From positions 1,897-65,896 of the forward strand of contig JAJZQH010000003.1 of the NCBI GenBank assembly GCA_021810905.1: DNA of 64,000 bases. Reading direction: 5' to 3'. Source of the stretch: a bacterium (lineage in GTDB: Bacteria; UBA10199; 2-02-FULL-44-16; JAAZCA01). Position 1 is the stretch's first letter. Each line of letters opens with the position of its first letter. Positions 21,883 to 55,677 of the stretch are shown piece by piece. Both the position numbers and the translations under genes were made by a program. Below the pieces are notes generated by a model. It saw only the letters and a list, made by a program, of their open reading frames with translations, was not told where the DNA came from and did not search any database.

Positions 21883-23010
21883 TCACGGATTATCGGAGCG
21901 CCGTCGTCGGAAATCCTCGAGAAATTCCGCTAGAGGCATTTTGAATTCGCCTGATCCGCCGTTCGCCATCGAGTTCCGCCACATCAATCCAGCAAGGCGC
22001 TGCTGAACGCCCTCGTCCTCTATGACGAGCGCTTCCAGGAGCAGGTTGCGACCGCCTTGCGCGCAGTTCGAGAGAATGAATAAGAGCGGGGCATCATTGC
22101 GCATTTCAAGACGTTCCCGCATCTTTCGCAGATTTGCGAGCAGCGAATTGAAAACCTTCACCGCATTCTTGTTGCCGATGAAGACAATATCGCGGTTCAT
22201 CAAACCGCCCAATCCAGGGGTTTCGCCGGTTTTCAGCCAAAGCTCAAGAGAGCAGCGAAAGCCGTGCTCCCCATAGACCGTCGCAAATCCGGGTCGCAGC
22301 TCAAAGCCCGCGTACCTCATCATCTCGAAGAGCGCTACGTGGAACCCTGGTCTCCACGTATCGTCATCAAAGACGATGAGCATGGAACCGCCTTCCGAGA
22401 TCCGCCTTTCGCATCCGCACAGGAGCTCATGCATCCTGGTGAGGTACATACGATCGAATGTGTGCAGGGGATCCATCTCCCAGTCCATCGCCTCAGGGTG
22501 TACCCACGTCACCAGATCAAAGGTCTCAAGAGAGTCGCCATCATCCGCAAGGCCCTCAATAAATCCGGATTGCACCATCCCACATCCGTCTCCGGCACGG
22601 ACCTGATGAATCTTTCCCTCAGGATCGTCCCCAAGAGCGCACTGAAACTCTTTGAGATTGATCCTGGCGCCCTCCAATTTCCAACTCAAGACATCAAATC
22701 CGATAGTCTTCACGAGACCCGGAAGCGCCAGTCTCATCCCCAAATTCTCGTACCATTTCCCCGCGCCGACCGAAAGTACGGTGCGCGCCTCACACTTCTT
22801 TCCGACTTCCTGATAGAGGAGTATTTGCGCGGTATCGTAATACAATCTTGGGACGAGTTCGTCGGCGCCTCCGCCATTATAGAAATGTTGATAGAGCCTC
22901 AGCAGATCATACCGCTGCGCAGCGACAAGCTGTTCGACCGAGAAGTGATCTCTGCTTGCAGACAGTGCCCGCGGCACTGAGTCCCTCAACTCGATATTTT
23001 TTTGAATCCA
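21883..23010 (-). CDS. Hypothetical protein (start uncertain; track ORF reads through an upstream MITE copy to 23403)
   Basis: Track ORF 21883..23403 includes in-frame translation of the repeat element (ENECSPRQAAGYHRQH...). Likely true start is a GTG/TTG just downstream of the element. Weak Rossmann-like VLSVGAGKW. Confidence 0.4.
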   Translation of the reverse strand, partial: WIQKNIELRDSVPRALSASRDHFSVEQLVAAQRYDLLRLYQHFYNGGGADELVPRLYYDTAQILLYQEVGKKCEARTVLSVGAGKWYENLGMRLALPGLVKTIGFDVLSWKLEGARINLKEFQCALGDDPEGKIHQVRAGDGCGMVQSGFIEGLADDGDSLETFDLVTWVHPEAMDWEMDPLHTFDRMYLTRMHELLCGCERRISEGGSMLIVFDDDTWRPGFHVALFEMMRYAGFELRPGFATVYGEHGFRCSLELWLKTGETPGLGGLMNRDIVFIGNKNAVKVFNSLLANLRKMRERLEMRNDAPLLFILSNCAQGGRNLLLEALVIEDEGVQQRLAGLMWRNSMANGGSGEFKMPLAEFLEDFRRRRSDNP

Positions 23011-23031
23011 TTGCGGGAGTTCAATGAGATG

Positions 23032-23152
23032 GTTCCCCGCAGCTTGCTGCGGGGTTTCCGCCACCATCTCCCTTGAGGGGAGAGGGAAGGGTGAGGGTGA
23101 TCGTCGATGTTGCCGGTGATACCCCGCGGCTTGCCGCGGGGAGCATTCATTT
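23032..23152 (-). repeat. MITE-like ~130-bp repeat element, inverted copy
   Basis: Reverse complement of the element at 46753..46900, 52425..52554 and 55829..55958. Hairpins CCCCGCAGCTTGCTGCGGGG, CTCCCTTGAGGGGAGAG, CCCCGCGGCTTGCCGCGGGG. Confidence 0.75.
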
Positions 23153-23485
23153 TCCGGAGCCGACTGTTCGCGATCGCGCGTGACTGGCAGTCGCGGAGTA
23201 ACCGGCCCAGGCGCGCCACGATATTGATCGCCAACCGCCACATATTCCGACGCCACGTCATTCAGGCATATACCCTGACGGGAATCGGGCAGCGGTATAA
23301 TATCATCGTCGCAGACCACGAACACTTCCTCTGCACCGGATTCCTCTGCAGGCAGCCCGTCTGCCGCGGCCATTACATCGAGATTTAACGGTTTTACGGT
23401 CATATATCTCCTGCCCTGACGACATGGACGTTATCGCAGAATTCCTGAAAAAGTTGCTCGATATTCGCACCCAAATCCGACACTT

Positions 23486-33806: not shown

Positions 33807-35480
33807 TCACTGCACGTCGTCGATCGTCTGGATCGGGATCGGGGTGAATGATATCGGCGGCGATGTCAGTTTGTAATCGCTCAGGCAGCTCCAGACCTCC
33901 GGCCGATCGGGAAGTACGTTCGCCGGCGGCAATATATATGGGGAGTTCAGATTGAGAGCCGGTTCCTGTCCCTGCATCTTGACTATCGGCAGGTTCTTCT
34001 GAAGCAATAATTTATATGCCCAATTCGGAACGGAATTAATTTTTTTGGCTGCCGGCTCGAGTGCCACGTTCTGGTTCAGGAGTTGCACCCTCTCTAACAG
34101 TTTTAAAAGTAAATATTTGTGCGGCAGGCAGCCATAGTGAACGAGGTCACTGCCATCCACGAAGATGTCGTGAGGCTGAGGCACATAAACAGCGTAATTC
34201 TTAGCACCTGAATAGACCACGATTGCGGGAATATTGATGCTGCGCAACATATGCGCGAGGAAATGGCTGGACGTTGCGTCGTCTCCTGCTCGCATGGCGA
34301 AAACGAGCTCAAGAGGGGCGTTCAGCGCTCGATCATCCGGACTTGCATACTTATTACTCTGATCAGCGCTATAGTTGCCGCTCTTCTGCACTTGCGAGCA
34401 GTAACTCCTGCCAGGATTGAACTGCTTATATTCCGGCGATATACCCACATAATAGCCGGAATCGGTCATCGTAATATCACCGCCTTGCCCGTGAAGAGCT
34501 ACCTGCGGGTCCACCCATGTGACCTCTTTTTCGATGATGCCCCTTGCGGTCGCGATCACCGGATCTTGCTGATTCAACGCACTGAGCGTCACGGGGAATA
34601 TCTTGTAGGTGTTGAAACCAGCGCCGCGGCAGACCCAGGAACCTTCATCGCTGGTGAATTTCGTATACAGTAGATCAGGCAGTCCAATCACCTTCTTTGA
34701 AGGAATCTGCTTGTTCCACTGATATCCATCGGGGATATTGTTGAAGAAGAAATCGACGAGAGTTGGGTCCCACGTCTTGATAGACCATGGCAATATGACC
34801 GCAGCCTCGACCCAGAACGCGTGTACGATAGAGACGATCCGCTGCCTGCACATCATGTCCTCGGTTCCGCACTTGGCGTCCAATGCCGCGTCGAATGCCG
34901 CTTGTTTGTCACTCGCCTTGTCGAATGGGTTGTACGTGAGGAACAGATCGCGAACGAGATCCAGCGTGCCTTCGGAAGTCAGTTGGGCCTTGAGATTGCT
35001 GAGATTGGAATAAGCGATGATTTCATCAAATTTGCCGTTCATCCACGCATCGTGATCCGCGGCAACTGCCTCAGGTCTGATAAACGCATTCCCCTGATTT
35101 TGCTGGATGAACTGGGCATAACCAAGATTGATTTTGTTGAACGAATGTATTGACGGCGGAGTGACGTTCACCTGCTGATCCACGCAGTGGTTATTCGCAT
35201 CGCATACCTGAGGAGCCGTGCACGTTCCGCACGAGGCGATCGTGCCGCCGCATTCGTCGGGAATATTGTCGCCGCACGTATAGCCCAGGTCCGCGCAGGT
35301 CTTTGGCACGCAACTCTCTGTGGGCGCCGGAGTGGCTTCAGGCAGTTCGCTCACGGTCGGCTCGTTACCAGCGCCGGCAGGCGTTCCCTCCCCGCCGCCG
35401 CTGCAGCCGATCACACCGGCTACGACGAGCGCGATGCAGATGATGAGTGAACCAGCGTATATTGAATATAGTTTCTTCAT
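33807..35480 (-). CDS. Secreted lipoprotein, unknown function
   Basis: Track ORF trimmed to MKKLYSIYAG start (AGGAGG SD). Lipobox VIGCSGG. Cys-rich N-terminal module. No known domain recognised. Confidence 0.5.
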   Translation of the reverse strand: MKKLYSIYAGSLIICIALVVAGVIGCSGGGEGTPAGAGNEPTVSELPEATPAPTESCVPKTCADLGYTCGDNIPDECGGTIASCGTCTAPQVCDANNHCVDQQVNVTPPSIHSFNKINLGYAQFIQQNQGNAFIRPEAVAADHDAWMNGKFDEIIAYSNLSNLKAQLTSEGTLDLVRDLFLTYNPFDKASDKQAAFDAALDAKCGTEDMMCRQRIVSIVHAFWVEAAVILPWSIKTWDPTLVDFFFNNIPDGYQWNKQIPSKKVIGLPDLLYTKFTSDEGSWVCRGAGFNTYKIFPVTLSALNQQDPVIATARGIIEKEVTWVDPQVALHGQGGDITMTDSGYYVGISPEYKQFNPGRSYCSQVQKSGNYSADQSNKYASPDDRALNAPLELVFAMRAGDDATSSHFLAHMLRSINIPAIVVYSGAKNYAVYVPQPHDIFVDGSDLVHYGCLPHKYLLLKLLERVQLLNQNVALEPAAKKINSVPNWAYKLLLQKNLPIVKMQGQEPALNLNSPYILPPANVLPDRPEVWSCLSDYKLTSPPISFTPIPIQTIDDVQ

Positions 35481-35671
35481 GGCAATCCTCCTGGGCAAAA
35501 ACTTCACAATGCTTATAATACAGCAAAGGACGTGCCATTGCGGCAGAAAAAAAAGACAACTGTAATATCAGCAGGTTGTAGAACTCTCGACCCTGGCGGG
35601 ATCACCATCAAATTGAGAATCAGGGCTGCCGGCATTGGATTTTTGACTGATAAATCGGACCGCTCTTCGCC

Positions 35672-37553: not shown

Positions 37554-39215
37554 TCACTTTGCGGATGCCACGGCATGGTTGACTATGGCCTGCGCCTCCT
37601 GCTGGATGCGGCGCAGGTGTTCCTCTCCGCGGAAGCTCTCGGCGTAGATCTTGTAGATATTTTCAGTGCCCGACGGACGAGCCGCGAACCACCCGCTCTC
37701 GGCTATCACCTTGAGCCCGCCTATCGGCGCATCGTTGCCCGGCGCGTTCGTGAGGATCTTCTCTATCTTCTCGCCAGCCAGTTCGCCGAGCTTCACCTCA
37801 CGCGGAGAAAGCTTCTTGAGCAGGGCCTTCTGCGCGGGCGTGGCGGGTGCGTCGATGCGGTCGTAGAGCGGTTCGCCGAACTCGCGCGTGAGCTCGCGAT
37901 AGAGCTCGCCGGGGTCGCGCCCCTCTTTCGCCGTCATCTCAGCAGCGAGCAGCGCGGGGATCATTCCGTCCTTGTCAGTGCTCCACGCCCCGCCGTCCAT
38001 TCTCAAAAACGACGCGCCGGCGCTCTCCTCGCCGCCGAAGCCGAGCGAGCCGCCCTGCAGCCCGTCCACGAACCACTTGAAGCCGACCGGAGTCTCGTAG
38101 AGTTTGCGGCCGACCTTTGCAGTCACGCGGTCGATCATGCTGCTCGACACCACGGTCTTGCCCACTGCGGCGTCCTTTCGCCAATTGGGTCTGTTCCTGA
38201 AGAGGTATGAGACCATCACCGCGAGGTATTGGTTCGGCTGCATGAGGCCCGCGCTGCGCGTGACTATGCCGTGCCTGTCGTGATCGGTGTCGCATGCGAA
38301 TGCGATGGCGAAGCGATCCTTGAGTCCGATGAGCCTCTGCATCGTATAGGGAGACGAGGGATCCATGCGGATCTTGCCGTCCCAGTCGACTGTCATGAAA
38401 CCGAACGTCGGGTCCACCACTTCGCTTACGACCGTGAGATCGATCTTGTATCGCTCCGCGATCTGCGCCCAGTAGTGCACGCCCGCGCCGCCAAGCGGGT
38501 CCACTCCCATCTTGATGCCTGCAGCGCGAATTGCCTCCATGTCGATTACGTTTGCGAGGTCATTAGTATATGCGTCTATGTAATCGTACCTGTGCGTGGT
38601 TGCCGCGTGAAGGGACTTCTCGAACGTAATTCTCTTCACTTCCGCAAGCCCGTTTCCAAGAATCTCGTTCGCCTTTGCCTCGATCCACCCGGTAATTGTC
38701 GGATCCGCTGGTCCACCATTCGGCGGATTGTACTTGAAGCCGCCATCAGAGGGAGGATTGTGCGATGGAGTGATCACAATGCCGTCCGCAAGTCCCGTAG
38801 TGCGGCCGCGGTTGTATGTCAGTATGGCGTGGGAGATGGCGGGCGTCGGCGTGTATTCGTCCTTGTCGGAGACCATCGTCTCCACGCCGTTTGCCGCCAG
38901 CACCTCCAGCGCGGTTGCAAACGCGGGCGCCGAGAGAGCGTGCGTATCGACTCCGATGTAGAGCGGGCCGCCGATGTCGTTTTTCCTGCGATACATGCAG
39001 ATCGCCTGCGTGACCGCGAGGATGTGAGACTCGTTGAAGGATCTCTCGAACGACGATCCGCGATGACCGGAGGTCCCGAACAAAACCCTCTGCGCCGCAA
39101 TCTGCGGGTCGGGCTTCTCGGTGTAATATGCAGTGATGAGCTTCGGGATATCCACGAGCATCGACTGCGAAACCGGTTTTCCTGCGAGAGGGCTGACGTT
39201 CATTTTTGGCTCCAT
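37554..39215 (-). CDS. pgm: Phosphoglucomutase (alpha-D-glucose phosphate-specific)
   Basis: Active-site Ser motif FGTSGHRGSS. Mg-binding DTDHDR-like loop (CDTDHDRHGIV). 553 aa. Confidence 0.85.
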   Translation of the reverse strand: MEPKMNVSPLAGKPVSQSMLVDIPKLITAYYTEKPDPQIAAQRVLFGTSGHRGSSFERSFNESHILAVTQAICMYRRKNDIGGPLYIGVDTHALSAPAFATALEVLAANGVETMVSDKDEYTPTPAISHAILTYNRGRTTGLADGIVITPSHNPPSDGGFKYNPPNGGPADPTITGWIEAKANEILGNGLAEVKRITFEKSLHAATTHRYDYIDAYTNDLANVIDMEAIRAAGIKMGVDPLGGAGVHYWAQIAERYKIDLTVVSEVVDPTFGFMTVDWDGKIRMDPSSPYTMQRLIGLKDRFAIAFACDTDHDRHGIVTRSAGLMQPNQYLAVMVSYLFRNRPNWRKDAAVGKTVVSSSMIDRVTAKVGRKLYETPVGFKWFVDGLQGGSLGFGGEESAGASFLRMDGGAWSTDKDGMIPALLAAEMTAKEGRDPGELYRELTREFGEPLYDRIDAPATPAQKALLKKLSPREVKLGELAGEKIEKILTNAPGNDAPIGGLKVIAESGWFAARPSGTENIYKIYAESFRGEEHLRRIQQEAQAIVNHAVASAK

Positions 39216-39402
39216 TATGTACGGGGACCTCTAAGAACCGTCCAGATGCAAGGCGCCCGACTGAGGCCGGCCGAGTCAGACAAGGCGGGAAAACTTCTGC
39301 CAGATGGCAGAAGGCAAACCGCCGCGTCAGTTATCAATCGCCCGCCGCAGGCCGTGCCGATGGAGGGCAACGCAGCAGATGGGCGGTTATTAGAGGTTCC
39401 CC

Positions 39403-40374
39403 TTAAGGACAGAAGGTCATGAGGAACTGCGTATTGCCGGCGCAATTGTGCAGCCCCACGACATCATCATATGAATACGCATACACGCCGCCGGTGCACA
39501 TGCTGTGTATGGCTGCCACGTATTTTGTCGCAGCCACGGGACCCGCGCGGCAGGCGCCCGGGTCGATTGGAGGAGTCGGGCAGCAGTACATCACGGCAGC
39601 GTCGCCCTGCTCGGAGAGGCCCTCGCCGTTGTATCCTGTGTTGTTGGGCCAGTTGAGTTTCTTGCACGGAGAATAGCACCCAAGCGCGGTGTCGGGACTT
39701 GCCGCGTCGAGGACCCTCAGATCCTCGTTGTTATACTCGGGATGCACATCTACCTGTCCCTGGCTTAAGTTCTCGTCGGTCGGGCAGCCGCTTAGATTGA
39801 GGTTTGTGCAGTCGATGGTATTGCAGGAAGAGCAATCCGCGTTGATGCAGGTTGAACCTCCTCCGCCGACGATGGTGACTTTGTAAGGCAAGGAATAACC
39901 GTCGACAGCGCTCGTGTCCCAAGAGGTGATCGGCGGGAGCTTCTGTGCCGGCGCAGAGGGATTCACCGCGCACTGCGTGGGATCGGCATTGGTGCAACCC
40001 CACGTGGCCTCAAATTTGGAATCAATGGGCGGGGCACAGCCTGCTGCCGGGCACGGGTCCGAGCTCTGACCCAACGAGCAGTTCTGGCTGTTGGCATCGC
40101 AACCTGTCTTGGGCCAGAAGCGCGTCGACGCAAGCCCTATATCAGGAATGTTGTAATCCACGTATCCGCCCTTGGCCAATTGAGTGACGGCGGCAGTTCC
40201 GGTGGGCATGTTCGATTGCTGGATCCAGATCGTATAAGAGCAGTTGTTGACGATTCGGAAGAGCGCGGTCTGCGTGGGAAGTCCGCCGCCGCCCCCGCCG
40301 CTGCCGCTTCCTCCTCCACAGCCGAAGCAGAACGCCAATGCGATTATAAGAGACAATGGGCGAAAAATTCTCAT
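39403..40374 (-). CDS. Thaumatin-like (PR-5/osmotin family) lipoprotein
   Basis: Lipobox FCFGCGG. Thaumatin family hallmarks: N-terminal beta-strand FRIVNNCSYTIW, multiple conserved Cys pairs, CCPTPP, GVYAYSYDDVVGLHNC, C-terminal FLMTFCP. Confidence 0.7.
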   Translation of the reverse strand: MRIFRPLSLIIALAFCFGCGGGSGSGGGGGGLPTQTALFRIVNNCSYTIWIQQSNMPTGTAAVTQLAKGGYVDYNIPDIGLASTRFWPKTGCDANSQNCSLGQSSDPCPAAGCAPPIDSKFEATWGCTNADPTQCAVNPSAPAQKLPPITSWDTSAVDGYSLPYKVTIVGGGGSTCINADCSSCNTIDCTNLNLSGCPTDENLSQGQVDVHPEYNNEDLRVLDAASPDTALGCYSPCKKLNWPNNTGYNGEGLSEQGDAAVMYCCPTPPIDPGACRAGPVAATKYVAAIHSMCTGGVYAYSYDDVVGLHNCAGNTQFLMTFCP

Positions 40375-40481
40375 GGTAATATCCCCCTGAGCGGTTCGAC
40401 ACTGTAGAATATGATCGGGGACTATAGACTAATAATTATAGAAATCATCAGGAAAATGACTGGCGAAGTTACACAGGTTCT

Positions 40482-41147
40482 TCAACTCGGCTTGCTGTGG
40501 CGCACATCCCTCCCCTTTGCCGTGAATATCGCGAGTTCCGCGATATTGGTGGAGTGATCCGCCATTCGTTCGAGATAGCGGACGATCGAAGTCGCCGGAA
40601 ACAGCCGGTTCAGATTTTCAGGCTCCTTTTCTGCGCGCTCCAGCAATTCCTTCACGTAATACTCGGTGAGATCGTCCACCACGTCGTCGTTATTGAGCAC
40701 TCCCTCGGCCTTTGCCGCGTTGGAGTTGACGAACGCGTCGATGCTGTCCTTGAGCATCATCTGCACATTGTTCGACATCTGAGTGAGATCGATAGGTGAG
40801 TCCCCGTGCTTCACGATATCTATCACGCGGCTCGCCGTGTTGACGGCTAGGTCCCCCACGCGCTCCAGATCCGTCACTATCTTTAGGCCGCGTGTGATAA
40901 AGCGCAGGTCCCACGCCGCGGGCTGGTAGCGCGCAAGCAGCTCTATGCACTGTTCGTCGATGGATACCTCCAGCGCGTTGACCGCATGATCGCTCTCGAT
41001 TATCTGCTGCGCGAGGGCCGTATCGCGCGAGGCCAGGGCCTTCATGCAATCCGCAACCATCGCCTCAACTTTGGATCCCATGAGCAGGATCTGCTGCTTG
41101 AGCGCCTCGATTGCCTCGTCAAAGTGACGATCGATGTGGTGTTCCAT
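40482..41147 (-). CDS. phoU: Phosphate-specific transport system accessory protein PhoU
   Basis: Two PhoU repeats (…RDTALAQQIIESDHAVNALEV… and …DVVDDLTEYYVKEL…). 221 aa. Immediately downstream of pstB. Confidence 0.9.
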   Translation of the reverse strand: MEHHIDRHFDEAIEALKQQILLMGSKVEAMVADCMKALASRDTALAQQIIESDHAVNALEVSIDEQCIELLARYQPAAWDLRFITRGLKIVTDLERVGDLAVNTASRVIDIVKHGDSPIDLTQMSNNVQMMLKDSIDAFVNSNAAKAEGVLNNDDVVDDLTEYYVKELLERAEKEPENLNRLFPATSIVRYLERMADHSTNIAELAIFTAKGRDVRHSKPS

Positions 41148-41155
41148 GATTCCTC

Positions 41156-41908
41156 CTATCCATAGCGTCCGGATATATAGTCTTCAGTGCGTTCGTCGCG
41201 CGGCGCGGTGAAGAGCTGCGTGGTCTTTCCGAATTCTATGAGTTCGCCGAGCAGCATAAAACCGCAGTCCTCGGAGACGCGCGCGGCCTGCTGCATGTTG
41301 TGCGTAACGATGACGATCGTGTATTCGCTCCTGAGGTCCTGCATCAGCTCTTCGATGTGCGCGGTGGCTATAGGGTCGAGCGCCGAGCACGGCTCGTCCA
41401 TGAGCAGGATCTCGGGCTTTGTGGCGAGCGCCCTCGCGATGCAGAGGCGCTGCTGCTGCTCGCCCGAGAGGGAGAGCGCGCCCGTCTTGAGCTTGTCCTT
41501 GAGATCCTCCCACAGCCCCACTCCCGTGAGGCATTTCTCGACTGTCTCCTCCACCTGCGACCTGTTGCCGATACCGTGGATTCTCATCCCGTAAGCGATG
41601 TTCTCGAAAATGTTCAGCGGAAACGGATTCGGGCGCTGGAAGACCATGCCTACGGTCCTGCGCAACTTGAGGATATCCTCATCGAGCAGCGGGCGACCCA
41701 GCACGCTCACGTCTCCCGTGATGCGCACGCCGGGGATGAGGTCGTTCATGCGGTTGAATACGCGAAGCAAAGTGGACTTGCCGCAACCCGAAGGTCCGAT
41801 GATCGAGGTGATGCGTTTGGGCGCAATGGAGACGGACACGGACTTCAGCGCATGGAAGTCGCCATAGAACAAGTTCAGGTCTGTGCAGGTTATGGAATCC
41901 ATCCTCAT
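41156..41908 (-). CDS. pstB: Phosphate ABC transporter ATP-binding protein PstB
   Basis: Walker [18 protein letters not shown] signature, PstB-typical length 250 aa. Overlaps upstream paralog by 4 nt. Confidence 0.9.
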
Positions 41909-42669
41909 CCAAACTTTCCAGTTACGTAATCCTCGGTGCGTTTGTCGCCCGGGGCGGTGAAGATCTTATTTGTATCGTCTACCTCTATCAGTTTTCCCAT
42001 GAGCAGAAAGGCCGTGCGGTCGCCCACTCGCGCTGCCTGCTTCGTGTTATTCGTGACGAGGATCAGCGTGTGCCTCGCCTTGAGTTCCTTCATCGCCTCT
42101 TCCACCTTTGCGGTGGAGATCGGGTCGAGGCCAGAGCACGGCTCGTCGAACATTATCACTTCGGGGCCCACCGCGAGCGTGCGCGCGATGCAGAGCCTCT
42201 GCTGCTGCCCGCCGGAGAGCTTCACCGCCGAACTGTCGAGCCTGTCCTTGACCTCGTCCCAGAGATAGGAGGCTACGAGCGTCTGCTCCACGAGATCGTC
42301 GGATGCCGATTTTCGAAGCCTGCGCACGAGTCTGGGTCCGAAGAGGATATTGTCGCGTATGCTCATGGGAAGCGGTATCGGCATCGCATAGACCATTCCG
42401 ATGCGCCGCCGCAACTCCTGGACGTCCCTGATTGCAGCCACGTCCTGCCCGCCCAGAAGAACGCTCCCTTCCACCGTGGCGTTGGTGACGCGCTCTATCA
42501 TACGGTTGATCGCCATGAGCAGCGTCGACTTGCCTGAGTTGGCCGGACCGATAATAGAGAGGATTTCGTTCTCCGCGATGTTGAGGGTCACCCCTTGCAA
42601 GGCAACTGCATCGCCGAATCTCACGCTGAGATCCAAAATTTCTATCTTGTTCTTCATGCGCGCCGTCAT
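41905..42669 (-). CDS. pstB: Second PstB-like phosphate ABC transporter ATPase (tandem paralog)
   Basis: Walker [18 protein letters not shown]. 254 aa. Sits between pstA and the other pstB. Confidence 0.85.
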
Positions 42670-45332: not shown

Positions 45333-45394
45333 ATGCCTCCGTTTTGTTATCAAGCAATTGAGTAATGAACCAACATGAGTCACATGTTCGAAAT

Positions 45395-45412
45395 TTGTTA
45401 AAAAAATGTTAA
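45395..45412 (-). promoter_or_regulatory. Candidate Pho box (TTAACAT-TTTT-TTAACAA, 7+4+7 direct repeat) upstream of pstS
   Basis: On - strand the sequence TTAACATTTTTTTAACAA has the 11-bp-phased direct-repeat architecture of PhoB sites. Similar TAAC(A/G)AT repeats upstream of porin and phoA. Confidence 0.35.
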
Positions 45413-46682: not shown

Positions 46683-46725
46683 ATCGTTACGAACGCCTTG
46701 TTCGGAAATCGTTAGAAAATTGTTA
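46683..46725 (-). promoter_or_regulatory. Candidate Pho boxes (TAACAAT-TTTC-TAACGAT ... TAACGAT) upstream of porin O/P gene
   Basis: Three TAAC(A/G)AT direct repeats on - strand. First two are 11-bp phased. Confidence 0.35.
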
Positions 46726-46752
46726 ATGCGTGAACTTGTAGCTCATCAAGAC

Positions 46753-48059: not shown

Positions 48060-48099
48060 GGTTGTCTCCTTATCCAGTTATTATGAAATAAATATTTTG

Positions 48100-48125
48100 A
48101 ACGTGTAAAAAATTTGTAAGCGTTA
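48100..48125 (-). promoter_or_regulatory. Candidate Pho box (TTAACGC TTACAAA-TTTT-TTACACG) upstream of phoA
   Basis: 11-bp phased TTAC(A)NN repeats on - strand within the 100-bp phoA leader. Confidence 0.3.
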
Positions 48126-48161: not shown

Positions 48162-50009
48162 TCATTTGGCCGCGCTCAACCCGCGCTCCATATCGGGCAG
48201 CATTTTCTTCATCCTGTTCGCCATGAAAAAGGCCTTAAAGAACATCCCCCAGCTGACCAATGAATTCGCAAACAGATTCCACTGCCTCACGATTCTCTCC
48301 GCAACGTTCAAGCCCTCCGTCTCCATCTCTTCGGCGGCCCTGGTATTCTTGGCTATGGCATGCCCGATCTTGATGCTCTCCCACAACTTGCCCATGAATC
48401 CCCTGGAGTCCTTTGACTCAGCCCTTTTTTTACGGGTCGATCTGATCGCCTGCCAAATTTGTCCCATGTTGCGGCCTGCCAGGAATCTCCTTATCGCAGG
48501 GCCTTCTTTCACCATATACTGCAGGAAGAGCAATCCGCCGTACGTTGAAGTGAACAACAGCGCGTGGGGTTCTGTGGCTGGATAGACTGAAACTGCAGTG
48601 CCGATGAGAGATGCGGCTGCGCCTATGCCCAGCGCGTTGACTATATGTTCGGTCGAAAGCTGTCTTGTCCTCTCCGCCACGGTCATTCTGTGCGTTTTTC
48701 CATTCTTCACTTCTACGGTCCCGTTCGGATCGAGACCGCGCAGCCCCCAGTGCTCTTTTAAGTTTCTGATCGTCTTGCCGGCAATCACTCCAAAGCCAAT
48801 GCTCGGAGGGAGCAATGCGAGGAGAAGACCGCCTATGACCAGCGTCTTTGGGACAACAAACGCGTAGTTGGCCCACCGATAAAGCGCCTCTGCGTTCGTG
48901 GATAAGGCGGCAGCGTTGTGTGCCGTCGGCTGAAGTTTTTCCATGGCATCGCTTACATAGGCAGAGTTCTCACGCAGAAAGGAGAAGCGTTCGGGCGCAA
49001 ACAGTGCGGCCCCGAGTATGGCGCTCGAGGCGATGGCCACGGCAAACTTCGGCACACGGGCAATCGCGTTGCCGAGCGAAAAGAGCGCGGCGTTGACGTC
49101 AGGGGTGTTGATCTGTCTGTCCTCTCCCTTTTCCACGGCTGACACGTATTTCTGTTGCTCTGCCTCGAGCATGGATAACCCGCTCTTCGCCTTTGCCCAC
49201 CATCCCAGGATCGACAGCGCAAATGCCCCATTTACCGCAATCGTTCCCGCAATATAACCCGCTTCCCACATGGTTGTGCCCCTGCCGAACAATTGCGCTG
49301 CGCCTATAGCCAGAAGCGTCGCACCTGAACAGACCTTGTCGGCCGTAAACGCCACGTTTCCGAGCAGGTCATAATAGTTTCGGAGATGGAGCTTCGTCCG
49401 CTCATCTTCGCTCAACCTTGTATCTCTGGCGAATGCAGCGGTCGCTGCAATATTGCCTCCGATAGCAAGCAGGTATCGTGCAAGCTTGCCTCCCATATAA
49501 ACATTCGAGTATCCGGCTGATTCGATGTCGATCTGAACCCTCTCAGAAGGGCTGAGGGCATGCCCCATGTGATCGCCGACGAGAAAACGCATCGGGATCG
49601 ACATGACATTTCCGGTATCCTGAGTATGGAGCGGTTCATCCGTGTAGGTGCCGGCCGCAACAAGCGCGCCGCTTATTGCCTCAGCCCTTGCATAATCGCC
49701 GACTGCCGCGGCGGCGCTGGGGACTCCCTGCGTCGACAATCTCCACAATGCCTTTCCGTCGATTCCGCCGTCATGCTGAGATCCTTCCGCAACTGTGGAT
49801 ACAGGGCCAGAGACACCCGACGGAGCAAAGGTTGATGACTGATTTGAAATCGCAGCAGCATCTACTGAGGAAGCGGCCGCAGGGGAAAGGCGGTCATCAA
49901 CGATATCGTCCGCAGTCAGCTCTTCCGTTTCATCAAAAAGAGGCTCCGCAGAAATTGCCGAGCCAAACTGCTCTGCTGAAGCCGTAAGGGAAGCCTGCAC
50001 GCTTACCAT
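48162..50009 (-). CDS. Large hypothetical protein (615 aa) with internal hydrophobic segments, embedded in Pho cluster
   Basis: Long ORF with plausible codon usage. No recognisable domain. Divergent from phoB. Confidence 0.4.
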   Translation of the reverse strand: MVSVQASLTASAEQFGSAISAEPLFDETEELTADDIVDDRLSPAAASSVDAAAISNQSSTFAPSGVSGPVSTVAEGSQHDGGIDGKALWRLSTQGVPSAAAAVGDYARAEAISGALVAAGTYTDEPLHTQDTGNVMSIPMRFLVGDHMGHALSPSERVQIDIESAGYSNVYMGGKLARYLLAIGGNIAATAAFARDTRLSEDERTKLHLRNYYDLLGNVAFTADKVCSGATLLAIGAAQLFGRGTTMWEAGYIAGTIAVNGAFALSILGWWAKAKSGLSMLEAEQQKYVSAVEKGEDRQINTPDVNAALFSLGNAIARVPKFAVAIASSAILGAALFAPERFSFLRENSAYVSDAMEKLQPTAHNAAALSTNAEALYRWANYAFVVPKTLVIGGLLLALLPPSIGFGVIAGKTIRNLKEHWGLRGLDPNGTVEVKNGKTHRMTVAERTRQLSTEHIVNALGIGAAASLIGTAVSVYPATEPHALLFTSTYGGLLFLQYMVKEGPAIRRFLAGRNMGQIWQAIRSTRKKRAESKDSRGFMGKLWESIKIGHAIAKNTRAAEEMETEGLNVAERIVRQWNLFANSLVSWGMFFKAFFMANRMKKMLPDMERGLSAAK

Positions 50010-50153
50010 CGCTGCGTCCTTTCGAAAAACAAGTTGCGCTCGTGACCATGCTTTCTGTAATAATGCTCATGACCTCTCTCACCTGGCGCATTAAGCGCAG
50101 ACGTGCTTTAGGAAGTGATTCGCAATCTGTTAATTATTGGTTAGGAGCGCCGC

Positions 50154-50843
50154 ATGGCTAAACTGAAAGTGCTCGTGGTCGACGACGAGGAAGACCTGCA
50201 GGAACTGCTGCGCTACAATCTCGAAAAAGAGGGCTATTCCGTATCGTGCGTCTCATCGGGTGAAGAGGCTCTCGCCTCTGTCAGAAAAAGCGTGCCGGAC
50301 ATCATCGTTCTGGACCTCATGCTTCCGGGCATGGACGGCTTCGACGTCTGCAGGGCGCTGAAGAAAGAGCAGAAGAGTGCGCGCATTCCTATAGTGATGC
50401 TCACTGCAAAAGGTGAGGACACGGACATCGTAGCCGGGCTCGAACTGGGCGCTGACGACTACGTGACCAAGCCCTTCAGTCCCAGGGTTCTGATAGCGCG
50501 GCTGAGAATGGTGCTGCGCCGCAAGCGCAAGGACGATGCGCCGTCTGCTGCAGAAACGATTGAGATACGAAATCTGACGATAGACCCGCAGCGGCACAGG
50601 GTCTCCATCAAGGGCAGGTCCGTCGAGCTCACCGCGACTGAGTTCGCCCTGCTGCATCACCTGGCCGGCAAACCCGGCTGGGTCTTCACGCGCGGCCAGC
50701 TCATCGATTCGATCAAGGGGAGCGACTACGCCGTGACCGAACGCTCGATAGACGTACAGATCGCCGGCCTCAGAAAAAAACTCGGCGCGGCCGGAGAAAA
50801 TATCGAGACGGTGCACGGCGTCGGCTACAGGTTCAAGGAGTGA
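50154..50843 (+). CDS. phoB: OmpR/PhoB-family response regulator
   Basis: Receiver domain (VVDDEEDL...DLMLPGMDG...K) plus winged-helix trans_reg_C (ELTATEFALLHHLA...VHGVGYRF). Adjacent to phoR-like kinase and pst genes. Confidence 0.85.
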   Translation: MAKLKVLVVDDEEDLQELLRYNLEKEGYSVSCVSSGEEALASVRKSVPDIIVLDLMLPGMDGFDVCRALKKEQKSARIPIVMLTAKGEDTDIVAGLELGADDYVTKPFSPRVLIARLRMVLRRKRKDDAPSAAETIEIRNLTIDPQRHRVSIKGRSVELTATEFALLHHLAGKPGWVFTRGQLIDSIKGSDYAVTERSIDVQIAGLRKKLGAAGENIETVHGVGYRFKE

Positions 50844-50846
50844 GAG

Positions 50847-52274
50847 ATGTCGAGAAAGCGGCTCTTGTGGCAGCTCTATCCTTCGTATCTCGCGATCACG
50901 CTGCTGGCGCTCGTGGCGATCGCGATATACTCGTCCAATGCGTTCAAGCAGCTCTTCTACGAACAGACTCTCTCGGAGCTCACGCATTCGGCCAGGCTCG
51001 TCTCGCAGATCATACTTGGATCCAACGCATGGAGCGAGAAGACCATAGACGCAATATGCAAACAGGCGGCCCAGAACTCATCCAAGAGGATAACCGTAAT
51101 CCTTCCCGACGGCGTCGTCATCGGGGATTCAGAGGAAGATCCGGGTTTGATGGAAAATCACGCTGAGCGGCCAGAGGTGAGCGAGGCGCTCGAGGGCTCC
51201 GTGGGAATAGCCACGCGCCACAGCCGTACGCTGGGCAAGGACATGACCTACGCCGCGATACCGCTCTACAAAAACGACAAGGTGGCGGCAGTCGTGCGCA
51301 CGTCGATGCCAACGCGTTCGCTGTCGGAAGTTATGAGCTCTCTGTATGCGGGCATCGCACTCGAAGCCGTGCTCCTCGCCATCCTCGTTGCGGCGATGCT
51401 CCTCGTCATCTCCAGAAAAATAATCAAGCCGCTGGAGAAGATCCGGATCGGGGCACGCAAATTCCTTGAGGGAGATCTCTCATACCGTTTGAGGGTTCAC
51501 GGTTCCGATGAGGTAAAGGCGCTGGCGACGACGATGAACCAGATGGCGGCCGAGCTGCAGGAACGGATCGAGCGCCTCAAGCAGATGGAGAACACGCGCC
51601 GCGAATTCGTAGCCAACGTCTCTCACGAACTCAAGACGCCGATCACCTCCATCAAGGGGTTTGCGGAGACGCTGCGCGACGGTGCGCTGGACGACCCTTC
51701 GCGCGCGAAGCAGTTCCTGGAGATCATAGCTTCGCATGCCGAGAGGATATCCAATATCATCGAGGACCTTCTGCACCTCTCCCGGATCGAGCAGGTGCAT
51801 GAGGTGCAGCAGATACCGCTGGAGCGCAGCGCGATCAGGGAGATGCTCGAGTCCGCGATCCTCATGTGCGAGACCAAGGCTTCGGAGAAAAAAATTACGC
51901 TGGAGCTATCCTGCGACGCCGGGCTCACGGCCCTCATAAATCCTGCGCTGCTCGAGCAGGCGGTCGTGAACCTCATCGACAACGCGATCAAGTACAGCGC
52001 CGAAGGCGGAAAGGTTTTCATCGAAGCGAAGGACGACGCCTCGGGCATGCGCATCTCCGTGCGCGATTCGGGAGTCGGAATACCGCAGGAACACCTGTCG
52101 CGGATTTTCGAGCGATTCTATCGTGTGGACAAGGGTCGGAGCCGCAAGCTGGGCGGCACCGGCCTGGGGCTCGCGATCGTGAAGCACATCGTGGCTGTGC
52201 ACAACGGACACGTCTCCGTCGAAAGCACCGTGGGTCAAGGGAGCAAATTTACGATCCGCCTGCCGGCCGAATAA
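50847..52274 (+). CDS. phoR: Sensor histidine kinase (PhoR-like)
   Basis: Two TM helices, HAMP-like, HisKA SHELKTPITSIKGF, HATPase_c (GLGLAIVKHIV). Start 4 nt after phoB stop. Confidence 0.85.
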   Translation: MSRKRLLWQLYPSYLAITLLALVAIAIYSSNAFKQLFYEQTLSELTHSARLVSQIILGSNAWSEKTIDAICKQAAQNSSKRITVILPDGVVIGDSEEDPGLMENHAERPEVSEALEGSVGIATRHSRTLGKDMTYAAIPLYKNDKVAAVVRTSMPTRSLSEVMSSLYAGIALEAVLLAILVAAMLLVISRKIIKPLEKIRIGARKFLEGDLSYRLRVHGSDEVKALATTMNQMAAELQERIERLKQMENTRREFVANVSHELKTPITSIKGFAETLRDGALDDPSRAKQFLEIIASHAERISNIIEDLLHLSRIEQVHEVQQIPLERSAIREMLESAILMCETKASEKKITLELSCDAGLTALINPALLEQAVVNLIDNAIKYSAEGGKVFIEAKDDASGMRISVRDSGVGIPQEHLSRIFERFYRVDKGRSRKLGGTGLGLAIVKHIVAVHNGHVSVESTVGQGSKFTIRLPAE

Positions 52275-52618: not shown

Positions 52619-53983
52619 ATGAAAAGGGTCATATGCTTGCCGATAGTGCTTCTCGCCTTTGTCCTCGTTTCATGTGTCAGCACTTCAAGCGGCACCAGCA
52701 GCGACAGCGGCACCACCAGCGGAACCTCGTCCACGACGATTCCCGCCAAGGCAGCAGTACTGCACAGCACGCCTCCATTCGGCGGGATCATGGTGGCCGA
52801 CAGTGGAGAGGTGATCCTCCCATTGGTCAGCTCCGACGGCAAGACGATCACCGGCGCCATCTGGAACAGCGAGACCGGCGGCACAGTCACGGTCTATCTC
52901 GATCCTTTGACCCACCTGCCCACCAAGACCATCCTTGGAGATTTCATCTTCCTCTTCTCCAACTGGAACGCGAACGCAGGAACCGTGGACATCGCTGAGA
53001 TCTACGGGCCAGGCAACTTCGTACAGTTGTTCAGGGGTGTGAGCGTCTCCTCGCTCGCGATCGCTAACGCCAATCTGAGTTCCAAAGACATGGCCTCCAA
53101 GTCGACGTGTTTCCCGGCCTGCGACTCCGACGCCAAGAATCTCGCGGAGCTCCTCAAGTTCGCGGGGCTGGGCATATCTGTCGGCGCATGCGGCGTGGCG
53201 ACGACCGTCTCGCTTGGAGCGATGGCGCTCCCGTGCGCCGGCGTTCTCGTGAGCACGGCCATCGCCGTTGTGGATACTGATACGTGGCTGCAGAATCTCG
53301 ACGATGCGGAGAGCATTCTTTCGGTGATCGACGCAGCGCAGTGCGCAACGCTCGATGTGGAGAGCTGCATCAGCACGATCCTCGGAGGTCTGAGCGCCCT
53401 CTTCGACAACGCGAGCAAGGTCGAGACCGCATATGCAGATTTTGAAACGAACGCAGATGCGGCGCTGGCAGATCCTGCCCAGCCGAGCGGCGTCATGCCC
53501 GGAAGTGGAGCTTTGCCGATAGCGGCGACAGGCACCTATGAATGCGATCCGAACGGCTCCATGCTCTATGAACCCTGCCTCACGGGCGGGACGAAGACAT
53601 GCCAGGCCGACTTCACCTATTCCGAATGTCCGAATGCGCCTTCCAGCAGCAGCTCAGGCAGCACCGGAGGAAGTGGAGGTTCCGGCGGAAGCGGCGGCAG
53701 TGGTGGAAGCGGAGGCAGCGGTGGAGGCAGCGGCGGGGCGTGTTCCTACAGCTACGATATTCCCAGCATGAAGTGCCCTGGCGAAACCTGCGTTACGTTT
53801 GCGGCTTGTTGCTCCTCATGTTCCATCAGCTCCTGCGTATCTACTTCTGACGAGCACTGCAACGGGGCGTCCTATTATTACAAGGTGTCAGGCGACCCAA
53901 CGCATTACTCGACCAGCTCGGCGTGTCAGTTGGCAGCTAACTGTGTTTACCAGTGTTTTGGCCAGACGGCCACGTGCAACTGA
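52619..53983 (+). CDS. Cys-rich secreted lipoprotein (paralog of 16386..17618)
   Basis: Lipobox LVSCVS. Shared core KSTCFPACDSDAKNLAELLKFAGLGISVGACGVATTVSLGAMALPCAGV. (GGS)n linker. Cys-rich C-terminus. Confidence 0.6.
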   Translation: MKRVICLPIVLLAFVLVSCVSTSSGTSSDSGTTSGTSSTTIPAKAAVLHSTPPFGGIMVADSGEVILPLVSSDGKTITGAIWNSETGGTVTVYLDPLTHLPTKTILGDFIFLFSNWNANAGTVDIAEIYGPGNFVQLFRGVSVSSLAIANANLSSKDMASKSTCFPACDSDAKNLAELLKFAGLGISVGACGVATTVSLGAMALPCAGVLVSTAIAVVDTDTWLQNLDDAESILSVIDAAQCATLDVESCISTILGGLSALFDNASKVETAYADFETNADAALADPAQPSGVMPGSGALPIAATGTYECDPNGSMLYEPCLTGGTKTCQADFTYSECPNAPSSSSSGSTGGSGGSGGSGGSGGSGGSGGGSGGACSYSYDIPSMKCPGETCVTFAACCSSCSISSCVSTSDEHCNGASYYYKVSGDPTHYSTSSACQLAANCVYQCFGQTATCN

Positions 53984-54300: not shown

Positions 54301-55677
54301 TTATCGCTCCGAAACCATGGGCAAAGCCAGCGCGTTCGCGCCGCTCACCAGGTCTTCATAAGAATCGTCGTCCTGTGTCACACGATCTTCCTCTTCTGGG
54401 AACGAAGACTGACCGGTCCCCGCATCGAAGAGGAGATTTTTTTCATCTTCTCCACCCGCATTTCTCACATCCACTACAGAGTGGCCTGCGTGAAATTTCA
54501 CCTGTTCCACACCTGAATCGAGAGCTGCGATCACGCGCCTGGTTACGCTGTGCAATCTGGCCGGGTCATCGTCCATAATGCGGATGTGCATCGAGCCGAG
54601 AATCGCGAAATTGAGGACAGCGATCGGCGTGAAGAATGGAGCCGCGCCTCCGAAGACGCGATCTGCGTGACGCTGCAGATCGTGATGGCGCGCCTCTTTG
54701 CTCCGGGCGGCAATCAGATACGAATTTTCCATATCGAGCAGCCCCGCCATGCCGTTAAAACCTGTGAACCACGGTTTATCGTAAAGAGATTGAAAGAGCC
54801 GCTGCGGCAGCAGCTCATCAACGGGAAAGATATTGAACGTTTCACTGCGCGCCGCTTCATCCGCCATGAGCATGTAGCCCGCGGCAGCCCGATCGTCAGC
54901 TGCGATCCCCTCCTGGAATTCCAGCTCCGTTCGATCATCGGCAATACCGATTCGAGGCGCTGCGACGCCGAACGCATCGAGAACCGAGTGAACCGCGCGC
55001 GACCATTCGGCTTGAGATAACTCGCCCATCGAGTGCGCGCGCATGAGCTCCATCCTGATCTTCGAATCGCCTGCGGCGCTGGAGATCGTGAGCGGCAGTA
55101 GCAGCGGCCTCTGCACAGGAAAAGCCAGATTCACCGCCTCCATGATATGCTCGTGTCTCACTGCGCCATCAGCAGCCATGAGCAGGATATTATTTCCATA
55201 GTCGAACAGTGCGGTGCGCACTGCAGGCCCGCCAGCTTTCCCGCGCAGAATTTCCGCGAGCTCATGCACCCTCTCACCAGCGTTCCTCAACACGCGCACG
55301 TAGTTGTCGCGGAAAAAAACGTACCTGGAAAGCGCTGCGTATCCGGCAAATACCGATTCCAGACTCATCTCCGCGTTACGATCGCGCAAAAGATATCCGC
55401 GCGCGTCTTCTCGGAACCTGCGCACGGTTGAAATGAGCGCTCCATACTCCCGCGCCTTTGGATCCGCGCTCCTGGAAAGCACGGCATGAAAACGAACGCC
55501 CAACGCCGCGTACGTTTGAAACCGCCTCGGATCTTCCACGGCGCTCAAGAGCACAGCGCGGCTCTGTCCGACCAGAGTCGGATCGTCCTCGACGATGGAC
55601 CTCGCCAGCCCCCTGCCGTGCTCCGTCCTGAGGATGGAAAAATCGTAGCCTGATACCGCGCCGCTGGAATCGTACAT
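54301..55677 (-). CDS. Hypothetical protein (458 aa)
   Basis: Long ORF, start abuts zinc-ribbon gene stop region. No recognised motif. Confidence 0.4.
   Translation of the reverse strand: MYDSSGAVSGYDFSILRTEHGRGLARSIVEDDPTLVGQSRAVLLSAVEDPRRFQTYAALGVRFHAVLSRSADPKAREYGALISTVRRFREDARGYLLRDRNAEMSLESVFAGYAALSRYVFFRDNYVRVLRNAGERVHELAEILRGKAGGPAVRTALFDYGNNILLMAADGAVRHEHIMEAVNLAFPVQRPLLLPLTISSAAGDSKIRMELMRAHSMGELSQAEWSRAVHSVLDAFGVAAPRIGIADDRTELEFQEGIAADDRAAAGYMLMADEAARSETFNIFPVDELLPQRLFQSLYDKPWFTGFNGMAGLLDMENSYLIAARSKEARHHDLQRHADRVFGGAAPFFTPIAVLNFAILGSMHIRIMDDDPARLHSVTRRVIAALDSGVEQVKFHAGHSVVDVRNAGGEDEKNLLFDAGTGQSSFPEEEDRVTQDDDSYEDLVSGANALALPMVSER

Follow-up and report, generated by a model that had tools for sequence, protein, structure and literature searches.

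A long thaumatin-like protein with a lipoprotein-type signal encoded downstream of phoU in a bacterial genome

Results

A thaumatin-family gene 3′ of phoU

We analysed a window of 64,000 nucleotides (nt) from a bacterial genome (GTDB lineage Bacteria; UBA10199; 2-02-FULL-44-16; JAAZCA01), corresponding to positions 1,897 to 65,896 of contig JAJZQH010000003.1 (assembly GCA_021810905.1); all coordinates below are those of the window. Our study concerns a gene for a thaumatin-like protein (TLP) located 3′ of phoU. A first-pass annotation had assigned this open reading frame (ORF) to the thaumatin family, on account of a cysteine framework and a terminal FCP, and had described it as a lipoprotein. 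The gene and its parts are as follows.

39403..40374, minus strand: TLP gene, a complete ORF with an ATG start, 323 amino acids and a stop codon (ORF list, PF00314)
40382..40388, minus strand: Shine-Dalgarno-like AGGGGGA, 7 nt 5′ of the TLP ATG (read from the sequence)
40321..40374, minus strand: signal peptide, residues 1-18 (MRIFRPLSLIIALAFCFG), a basic N-terminus then a hydrophobic core (read from the sequence)
40318..40320, minus strand: codon of Cys19, the probable lipidated +1 Cys of a non-canonical lipobox, C-F-G-C (alignment of 74 relatives)
40282..40317, minus strand: Gly/Ser linker, residues 20-31 (GGGSGSGGGGGG) (read from the sequence)
39406..40266, minus strand: thaumatin-fold domain, residues 37-323, with 20 Cys and an FCP end (Pfam, hhalign, AlphaFold2, Foldseek, conservation)

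Membership of the thaumatin family was confirmed by the Pfam Thaumatin profile (PF00314), which matched TLP residues 43-323 over profile positions 1-209 of 209, with an E-value of 6e-15 and a score of 55.9 bits, above the gathering score of 27.4. The best sequence matches in the PDB were cherry Pru av 2 and osmotin, and hhalign comparison of a profile of 74 relatives with Pru av 2 gave a probability of 99.5% and an E-value of 3.8e-22. PF00314 was also matched by 44 of the 74 relatives at E ≤ 0.001. The C-terminal ...MTFCP of the TLP aligned with ...ITFCP of Pru av 2, in agreement with the terminal FCP read earlier. The PROSITE thaumatin signature, which we take to be G-x-[GF]-x-C-x-T-[GA]-D-C-x(1,2)-[GQ]-x(2,3)-C, was found neither in the TLP nor in any of 120 relatives, with Pru av 2 as a positive control; the equivalent region of the TLP reads GCDANSQNCSLGQSSDPCP. 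This signature is a diagnostic pattern and does not define the family. An identical protein is present on NCBI contig DAHVYM010000026.1 (GCA_027327785.1).

Sixteen conserved cysteines forming eight disulfides are a trait of the thaumatin family (PMC3048497). Fifteen of these 16 were aligned between the TLP and Pru av 2, and the sixteenth belongs to the C92-C113 region, which contains four Cys in each protein; the cysteine framework of the first-pass annotation was thus recovered. In total, the TLP has 22 Cys, with C16 and C19 in the signal region and 20 in the mature part. With C19 as the lipid site, an even number of Cys would remain for disulfide pairing. Two pairs come in addition to the canonical set: C127/C135 is found in essentially all relatives, and C176/C181 in only 3 of 74 members. 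Members of the subfamily are described by a domain of ~290 residues with 16 canonical Cys and a family-specific pair, to which the TLP adds one further pair.

Predicted structure and candidate cleft residues

A model of the TLP was built with AlphaFold2 from the alignment of 74 sequences. It reached a mean predicted local distance difference test (pLDDT) score of 89.8 and a predicted template modelling (TM) score of 0.85. Residues 1-30 alone were poorly defined, with pLDDT values of 54-60, which fits a segment that is flexible or removed by cleavage. In a Foldseek search of the PDB, the 28 best matches of the model were all thaumatin or thaumatin-like proteins, with TM-scores of 0.68-0.78 normalised to the (shorter) targets. 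Mal d 2 gave the best E-value (1.8e-15), and the matches included Pru av 2, the fungal (Puccinia) protein 7p23, PR-5d, osmotin, zeamatin and the bacterial protein 7p22. GH64 β-1,3-glucanases ranked after the TLPs as weak matches. The predicted fold of the TLP is that of thaumatin.

The acidic cleft of eukaryotic TLPs is defined by the REDDD motif (PMC3048497). In the hhalign comparison with Pru av 2, R85, D153, D158 and D303/D304 of the TLP aligned with plant REDDD residues. Eight residues (R85, E122, D303, D304, W50, W87, Y298 and Y302) are invariant in the 74 relatives; 73 of these also have D158. The invariant E122, on the strand that immediately follows the PP motif, is a candidate for the cleft Glu.

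Export signal and probable lipid anchor

The TLP starts with an export signal of the lipoprotein type. In 66 of 74 relatives, the lipobox Cys was aligned to C19; this agrees with the bacterial lipobox claimed earlier as far as the Cys is concerned, and C16 is not conserved. A canonical lipobox, according to the rule [LVI][ASTVI][GAS]-C (PROSITE PS51257-like), was found in 77 of 109 full-length relatives; 32 of these 77 also have a Gly/Ser-rich stretch after the lipobox Cys. The TLP is exported and probably lipid-anchored, with C19 as the probable site of lipidation.

A subgroup of relatives ending in ...VTFYCP has no lipobox; the N-terminal region of these proteins is long and leads into one hydrophobic segment. 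This suggests a signal anchor, and the subgroup may represent a different host group and anchoring mode.

Distribution and domain fusions of the bacterial subfamily

A word-indexed search returned 209 significant relatives, nearly all metagenomic. A HMMER scan of 1.84 billion cluster representatives retrieved 977 proteins with E ≤ 1e-3, of which 249 reached E ≤ 1e-30. Relatives are also encoded by at least 105 stretches in a set of 185,579 species genomes (one genome per species). In these genomes, carriers are Sorangium, Nannocystis, Minicystis, Byssovorax, Kofleriaceae and Sandaracinaceae; further carriers are Legionella, Cellvibrio, Hahella, Bdellovibrionales, Thermoanaerobaculia, Acidobacteriota and several metagenome-assembled genomes (MAGs) named 'Deltaproteobacteria/Pseudomonadota bacterium'. 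Some relatives already bear the labels 'thaumatin family protein' (NCBI; Nannocystis pusilla) or 'Thaumatin family' (JGI). The subfamily is numerically rare, taxonomically broad and already recognised by annotation pipelines, and the TLP is a member of a known, functionally unexplored bacterial branch of the thaumatin family. The first-pass annotation had called such proteins rare in bacteria. This stands for their number, with 249 representatives at the stricter threshold, but not for their phylogenetic spread. The surprise was overstated, given the existing NCBI and JGI labels and the PDB entry of a bacterial TLP (7p22).

The number of copies and the domain organisation vary among relatives. 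Some loci hold several copies, since 99 thaumatin-like ORFs were counted in 85 loci, and in one MAG the TLP gene is found on two separate contigs. At the N-terminus, some relatives bear a Big_5 domain or an additional Cys-rich module.

We rejected a recent transfer of the gene from plants to bacteria. The nearest relatives are all bacterial or metagenomic, with ~20% identity between the TLP and eukaryotic TLPs, and the gene does not stand out from its flanks in local GC content (0.57-0.59).

The best functional clue comes from domain fusions. Longer relatives are fused to GH16/SKN1-KRE6 (of β-glucanase type), CBM56, CBM6/CBM35, X8 (CBM43) or ricin-B lectin modules. CBM56 and X8 bind β-1,3-glucan, and GH16 includes laminarinases. 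Weak matches to GH64 (PF16483) were obtained for the TLP (E 0.095) and for 9 of 74 relatives. Among published TLPs, glucan-lytic activity is widespread and the acidic cleft is conserved (PMC3048497), and the GH152 enzymes are active glucanases (PMC11800479). Taken together, the fusions, the conserved cleft and aromatic residues, the distant likeness to GH64, the activities of eukaryotic TLPs and GH152 enzymes, and the lifestyles of the carriers make a glucan-related role of the TLP plausible.

As an alternative, the TLP could be a toxin directed against eukaryotes. It would permeabilise membranes like osmotin, instead of acting on glucan, and be used by predatory or host-associated bacteria against fungi, amoebae or other prey. 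Enrichment of the family in Myxococcota, Legionella and Bdellovibrionales fits this idea, as does the structural match to antifungal osmotin, PR-5d and zeamatin, and antifungal activity is widespread among TLPs (PMC3048497). However, the modules fused to the relatives are carbohydrate modules and not toxin or delivery modules. In addition, a lipid anchor with a short tether would keep the TLP on its producer, an arrangement more suited to binding than to a toxin that diffuses. Most membrane-active osmotins are basic, whereas the mature TLP is strongly acidic, with an isoelectric point of 4.33. Overall, we find such a toxin unlikely.

The TLP gene at the 3′ end of a Pho island

The TLP gene is located at the 3′ end of a Pho island of ~12 kb that contains PhoB/PhoR-like genes, a 615-residue ORF, and genes for alkaline phosphatase, porin O/P, pstS, pstC, pstA, two pstB and phoU. 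Features of this region are listed here.

40375..40481, minus strand: phoU-TLP spacer, 107 nt (scans, folding)
40440..40435, minus strand: TATAAT hexamer without a good -35 element (read from the sequence)
39290..39313, minus strand: terminator-like hairpin 3′ of the TLP gene, CTTCTGCC-ATCT-GGCAGAAG then TTTT, with a GC-rich 8-bp stem (RNA fold)
40482..41147, minus strand: phoU, last conserved gene of pstS-C-A-B-B-phoU (PF01895, E 1.8e-47)
41156-41908 and 41905-42669, minus strand: two tandem pstB-like ABC ATPase genes with a 4-nt overlap, also present in all four related genomes examined
48162-50009, minus strand: 615-residue ORF of the Pho island, divergent from phoB and directly downstream of a putative Pho-box (ORF list)
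50154..52274, plus strand: PhoB/PhoR-like genes of the Pho island
45391-45412, 46694-46726, 48099-48120 and 50112-50133, minus strand: 11-bp-periodic TTAACA-like direct repeats, e.g. TTAACATTTTTTTAACAAATTTCGAACA (position matrix)

The TTAACA-like repeats are found 5′ of pstS, of the genes for porin O/P and alkaline phosphatase, and of the divergent pair formed by the 615-residue ORF and phoB. They are likely the PhoB boxes of this lineage, and we take them to resemble the TT(A/T/C)ACA repeat of Bacillus PhoP. A rough position matrix, self-trained on the sites of the window (pstS, porin, alkaline phosphatase, phoB), scored its training sites at 19.6-31.9 bits, and the next best site in the 64 kb at 12.7 bits. 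The 615-residue ORF had no match in Pfam, NCBIfam or PDB sequences, and is a candidate phosphate-starvation protein.

As first reported, the TLP gene and phoU lie on the same strand, 107 nt apart. This arrangement raises the possibility that the TLP is the last cistron of pstS-C-A-B-B-phoU, a passenger or member of the Pho regulon that is induced by phosphate starvation and, for instance, attacks glucan-walled cells for nutrients. The position of the gene at the 3′ end of an island with strong TTAACA-N5 repeats before four transcription units is consistent with this scenario. Moreover, no terminator or strong promoter was found on the TLP strand of the spacer by consensus scan, with no convincing sigma-70 promoter, and the spacer forms no stable hairpin (fold z-score +1.0). 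The clear hairpin with its T-run comes after the gene. A simple scan overlooked it, presumably on account of its short run of four T. Read-through from pst-phoU into the TLP gene is thus possible. However, the TATAAT hexamer of the spacer and the gene's own Shine-Dalgarno-like element make an independent transcription possible as well. The matrix gave no Pho-box to the TLP gene itself: the best upstream site scored 3.1 bits (rank 104 of 127,958 positions), as compared with 20-32 bits at the Pho-boxes, and no meaningful 8-mers were shared between the TLP upstream region and the other Pho promoters. Furthermore, β-glucan contains no phosphate, so that it offers no direct mechanistic link to Pho.

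The structure of the 187-nt TLP-pgm spacer (39216-39402, minus strand) exceeds the terminator-like hairpin alone. RNA folding of 39210-39420 on the minus strand gave -92.6 kcal/mol and a z-score of -4.5, with 0 of 200 shuffles as stable. Rfam returned no match at E ≤ 1 in 39100-40600.

Absence of a conserved neighbourhood

We compared the gene contexts by tblastn of the Pst, PhoU, Pgm and ABC-F proteins of the window against 91 loci. The six closest TLP homologues (52-73% identity) are all in unrelated gene contexts. At E ≤ 10 and within about 6 kb, PhoU was found near 0 of ~89 other TLP loci. Conversely, four relatives with PhoU 72-85% identical to that of the window have kept pstS-C-A-B-B-phoU, and in none of the four does the TLP gene follow phoU, which is followed instead by a convergent hypothetical gene, a radical-SAM gene, HipA or PriA. 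In one of the four, as in the window, the same ABC-F gene lies ~2 kb downstream of phoU. What separates phoU from this gene is therefore a variable junction, filled here by the TLP gene and pgm. All-against-all clustering of the ORFs of 85 loci revealed no meaningful recurrent neighbour of the TLP gene: the groups it returned were Ser/Thr kinases and artefacts from the antisense strand of high-GC DNA. Such kinases are expected to be common in Myxococcota genomes anyway.

A conserved functional link between the TLP and Pho is not supported. The link to phosphate starvation suggested by the first-pass annotation was not supported by these comparisons, with phoU absent from other TLP loci, a different gene after phoU in the four relatives, and no Pho-box of the gene's own. 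From the broader proposal of a secreted, Pho-linked protein that binds glucan or acts like a glucanase, export remains and the glucan role is plausible in view of the fusions; the Pho part finds no support other than a possible read-through. That the TLP belongs to the Pho regulon is, in our view, possible and rather doubtful. Pho-dependent expression in this particular genome can be entertained only tentatively, and it is much less probable that such expression would reflect the function of the TLP.

On the other side, a phosphoglucomutase gene (pgm) lies immediately downstream of the TLP gene, which could hint at a self-directed function. The TLP would bind or remodel the producer's own β-glucan exopolysaccharide or periplasmic glucans, or would inhibit foreign glycosidases or proteases, as does the thaumatin-like xylanase inhibitor TLXI. 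The lipoprotein tether would indeed place the TLP in the producer's own envelope, and the small TLXI is among the fold matches (E 2.9e-6). However, the tblastn comparison showed that adjacency to pgm is unique to this genome among TLP loci, and the terminator-like hairpin stands between the two genes. No glucan synthase or exopolysaccharide genes recur beside family members. In addition, the TLP is full-length and has the cleft residues, unlike proteins of the TLXI type, which are truncated and devoid of cleft (PMC3048497). A self-directed role therefore appears improbable to us.

Elsewhere in the window, four long ORFs of 454-566 residues (33807-35507, minus strand; 52619-53983, plus strand; 54301-55677, minus strand; 21883-23403, minus strand) had no Pfam match at E ≤ 0.001, and that at 33807-35507 had no NCBIfam match either. 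The sole Pfam match of an 877-residue ORF (19175-21808, minus strand) was sigma-70 region 4, at residues 820-864, its extreme C-terminus. This ORF is unusually long for a protein with this region.

Discussion

Our results lead us to favour, as reasonably probable, an exported and probably lipid-anchored TLP that binds β-1,3-glucan and perhaps cleaves it slowly, with phoU as an accidental neighbour. In such a model, the TLP would be synthesised with a signal peptide; cleavage would most likely occur before Cys19, and lipid would anchor the product. The flexible Gly/Ser tether of 12 residues would then hold the domain at a diderm envelope; diderm markers in the window include porin O/P, OEP and AcrB. 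Because no Asp follows Cys19, the E. coli sorting rule would assign the protein to the outer membrane. The TLP would most likely bind β-1,3-glucan, and this could come from fungal, oomycete or algal walls, from laminarin or from curdlan-like polymers. Binding would involve R85, E122, D158 and D303/D304, together with the aromatic residues W50, W87, Y298, Y300 and Y302. Slow cleavage in the manner of GH152-type TLPs, as a weak endo-glucanase, may also occur. The gene itself would have been inserted at the variable junction after phoU, where it may receive read-through transcription from pst-phoU.

Several observations weigh against this interpretation. Regarding the anchor, the sequence A-F-C-F-G-C19 fails the PS51257-like pattern, with a Cys at position -3, so that the earlier claim of a lipobox does not stand as regards the pattern. 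The predicted outer-membrane location follows from the sorting rule, and exposure at the surface is an assumption. Regarding the cleft, D153 is replaced by Asn in 54 of 74 relatives. In addition, hhalign sets the plant cleft Glu opposite D131 and not E122, and the MAFFT and hhalign placements of this Glu disagree with the topological argument. The PROSITE signature is missing from the subfamily as a whole. Many plant TLPs bind glucan without measurable hydrolysis, which makes catalysis by the TLP uncertain. Finally, our literature searches found no functional study of members of the bacterial subfamily.

At this locus, the value of the finding is modest, since the TLP is an already annotatable family member and the phosphate link is not general. 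The subfamily has a wider interest. TLPs have been studied almost only in plants, fungi and animals, and the ~250 divergent clusters found here form a distinct bacterial subfamily. Its members, most of them lipoproteins, occur above all in bacteria that are predatory, associated with hosts or able to degrade polysaccharides. Should these proteins bind or cut β-1,3-glucan at the bacterial surface, they would represent a further tool in bacterial-fungal or bacterial-protist interactions, and also a source of prokaryotic GH152-type enzymes.

A bolder scheme can be imagined, in which a surface-tethered TLP that binds or cleaves glucan was captured at the 3′ end of pst-phoU, so that phosphate starvation switches on an attack on glucan-walled eukaryotic microbes. 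We give this scheme little credence. Were it true, the capture would link nutrient stress to predation or scavenging, and Myxococcota, Legionella and related bacteria would possess, in the long 18-Cys lipoprotein subfamily, a tool against fungi or protists that has gone unrecognised.

Comparison with known systems

Plant PR-5 proteins and TLPs (Pru av 2, 2ahn; Mal d 2, 3zs3; osmotin, 1pcv and 4l2j; tobacco PR-5d, 1aun) belong to the same Pfam family as the TLP and share its predicted fold. All 16 canonical Cys of the plant proteins have counterparts in the TLP, and proteins of both kinds are secreted and rich in disulfides. They also have in common the Arg of RFW, the Asp of VDG(Y/F), the YxYDD motif and the C-terminal FCP. 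In contrast, identity to the TLP is only 18-24%. The plant proteins have 200-222 residues as compared to ~287 in the TLP domain, which is ~70-80 residues longer, with insertions at ~126-148 and ~198-262. The TLP further differs by two extra Cys pairs and by the absence of the PROSITE signature. Finally, the plant proteins use a eukaryotic secretory signal, whereas the TLP has a bacterial lipoprotein-type signal followed by a Gly/Ser tether.

The thaumatin fold predicted for the TLP is also found in a bacterial protein, that of Amycolatopsis rifamycinica (7p22; Foldseek E 1.9e-9, target-normalised TM-score 0.69). However, 7p22 is of the short kind, with ~220 residues, and is 18-19% identical to the TLP. 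It was absent from the phmmer and profile sequence matches of the TLP at the thresholds used, and therefore represents a bacterial lineage separate from the long subfamily.

A distant structural likeness was observed with the laminaripentaose-producing β-1,3-glucanases of family GH64 (5h4e, E 5.7e-5; 7vtk, E 7.7e-4). Assignment of the TLP to GH64 was rejected, the TM-scores being only 0.3-0.4 and the matches falling well short of the threshold for that family.

Only two GH152 enzymes are reported as characterised, both of them eukaryotic (PMC11800479). By analogy with Lentinula edodes TLG1 and whitefly Bta13961, which have a thaumatin fold and an acidic cleft, the TLP may be expected to act on a β-1,3(/1,4)-glucan substrate. 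The GH16, CBM56, X8 and CBM6 modules fused to relatives of the TLP point to the same substrates.

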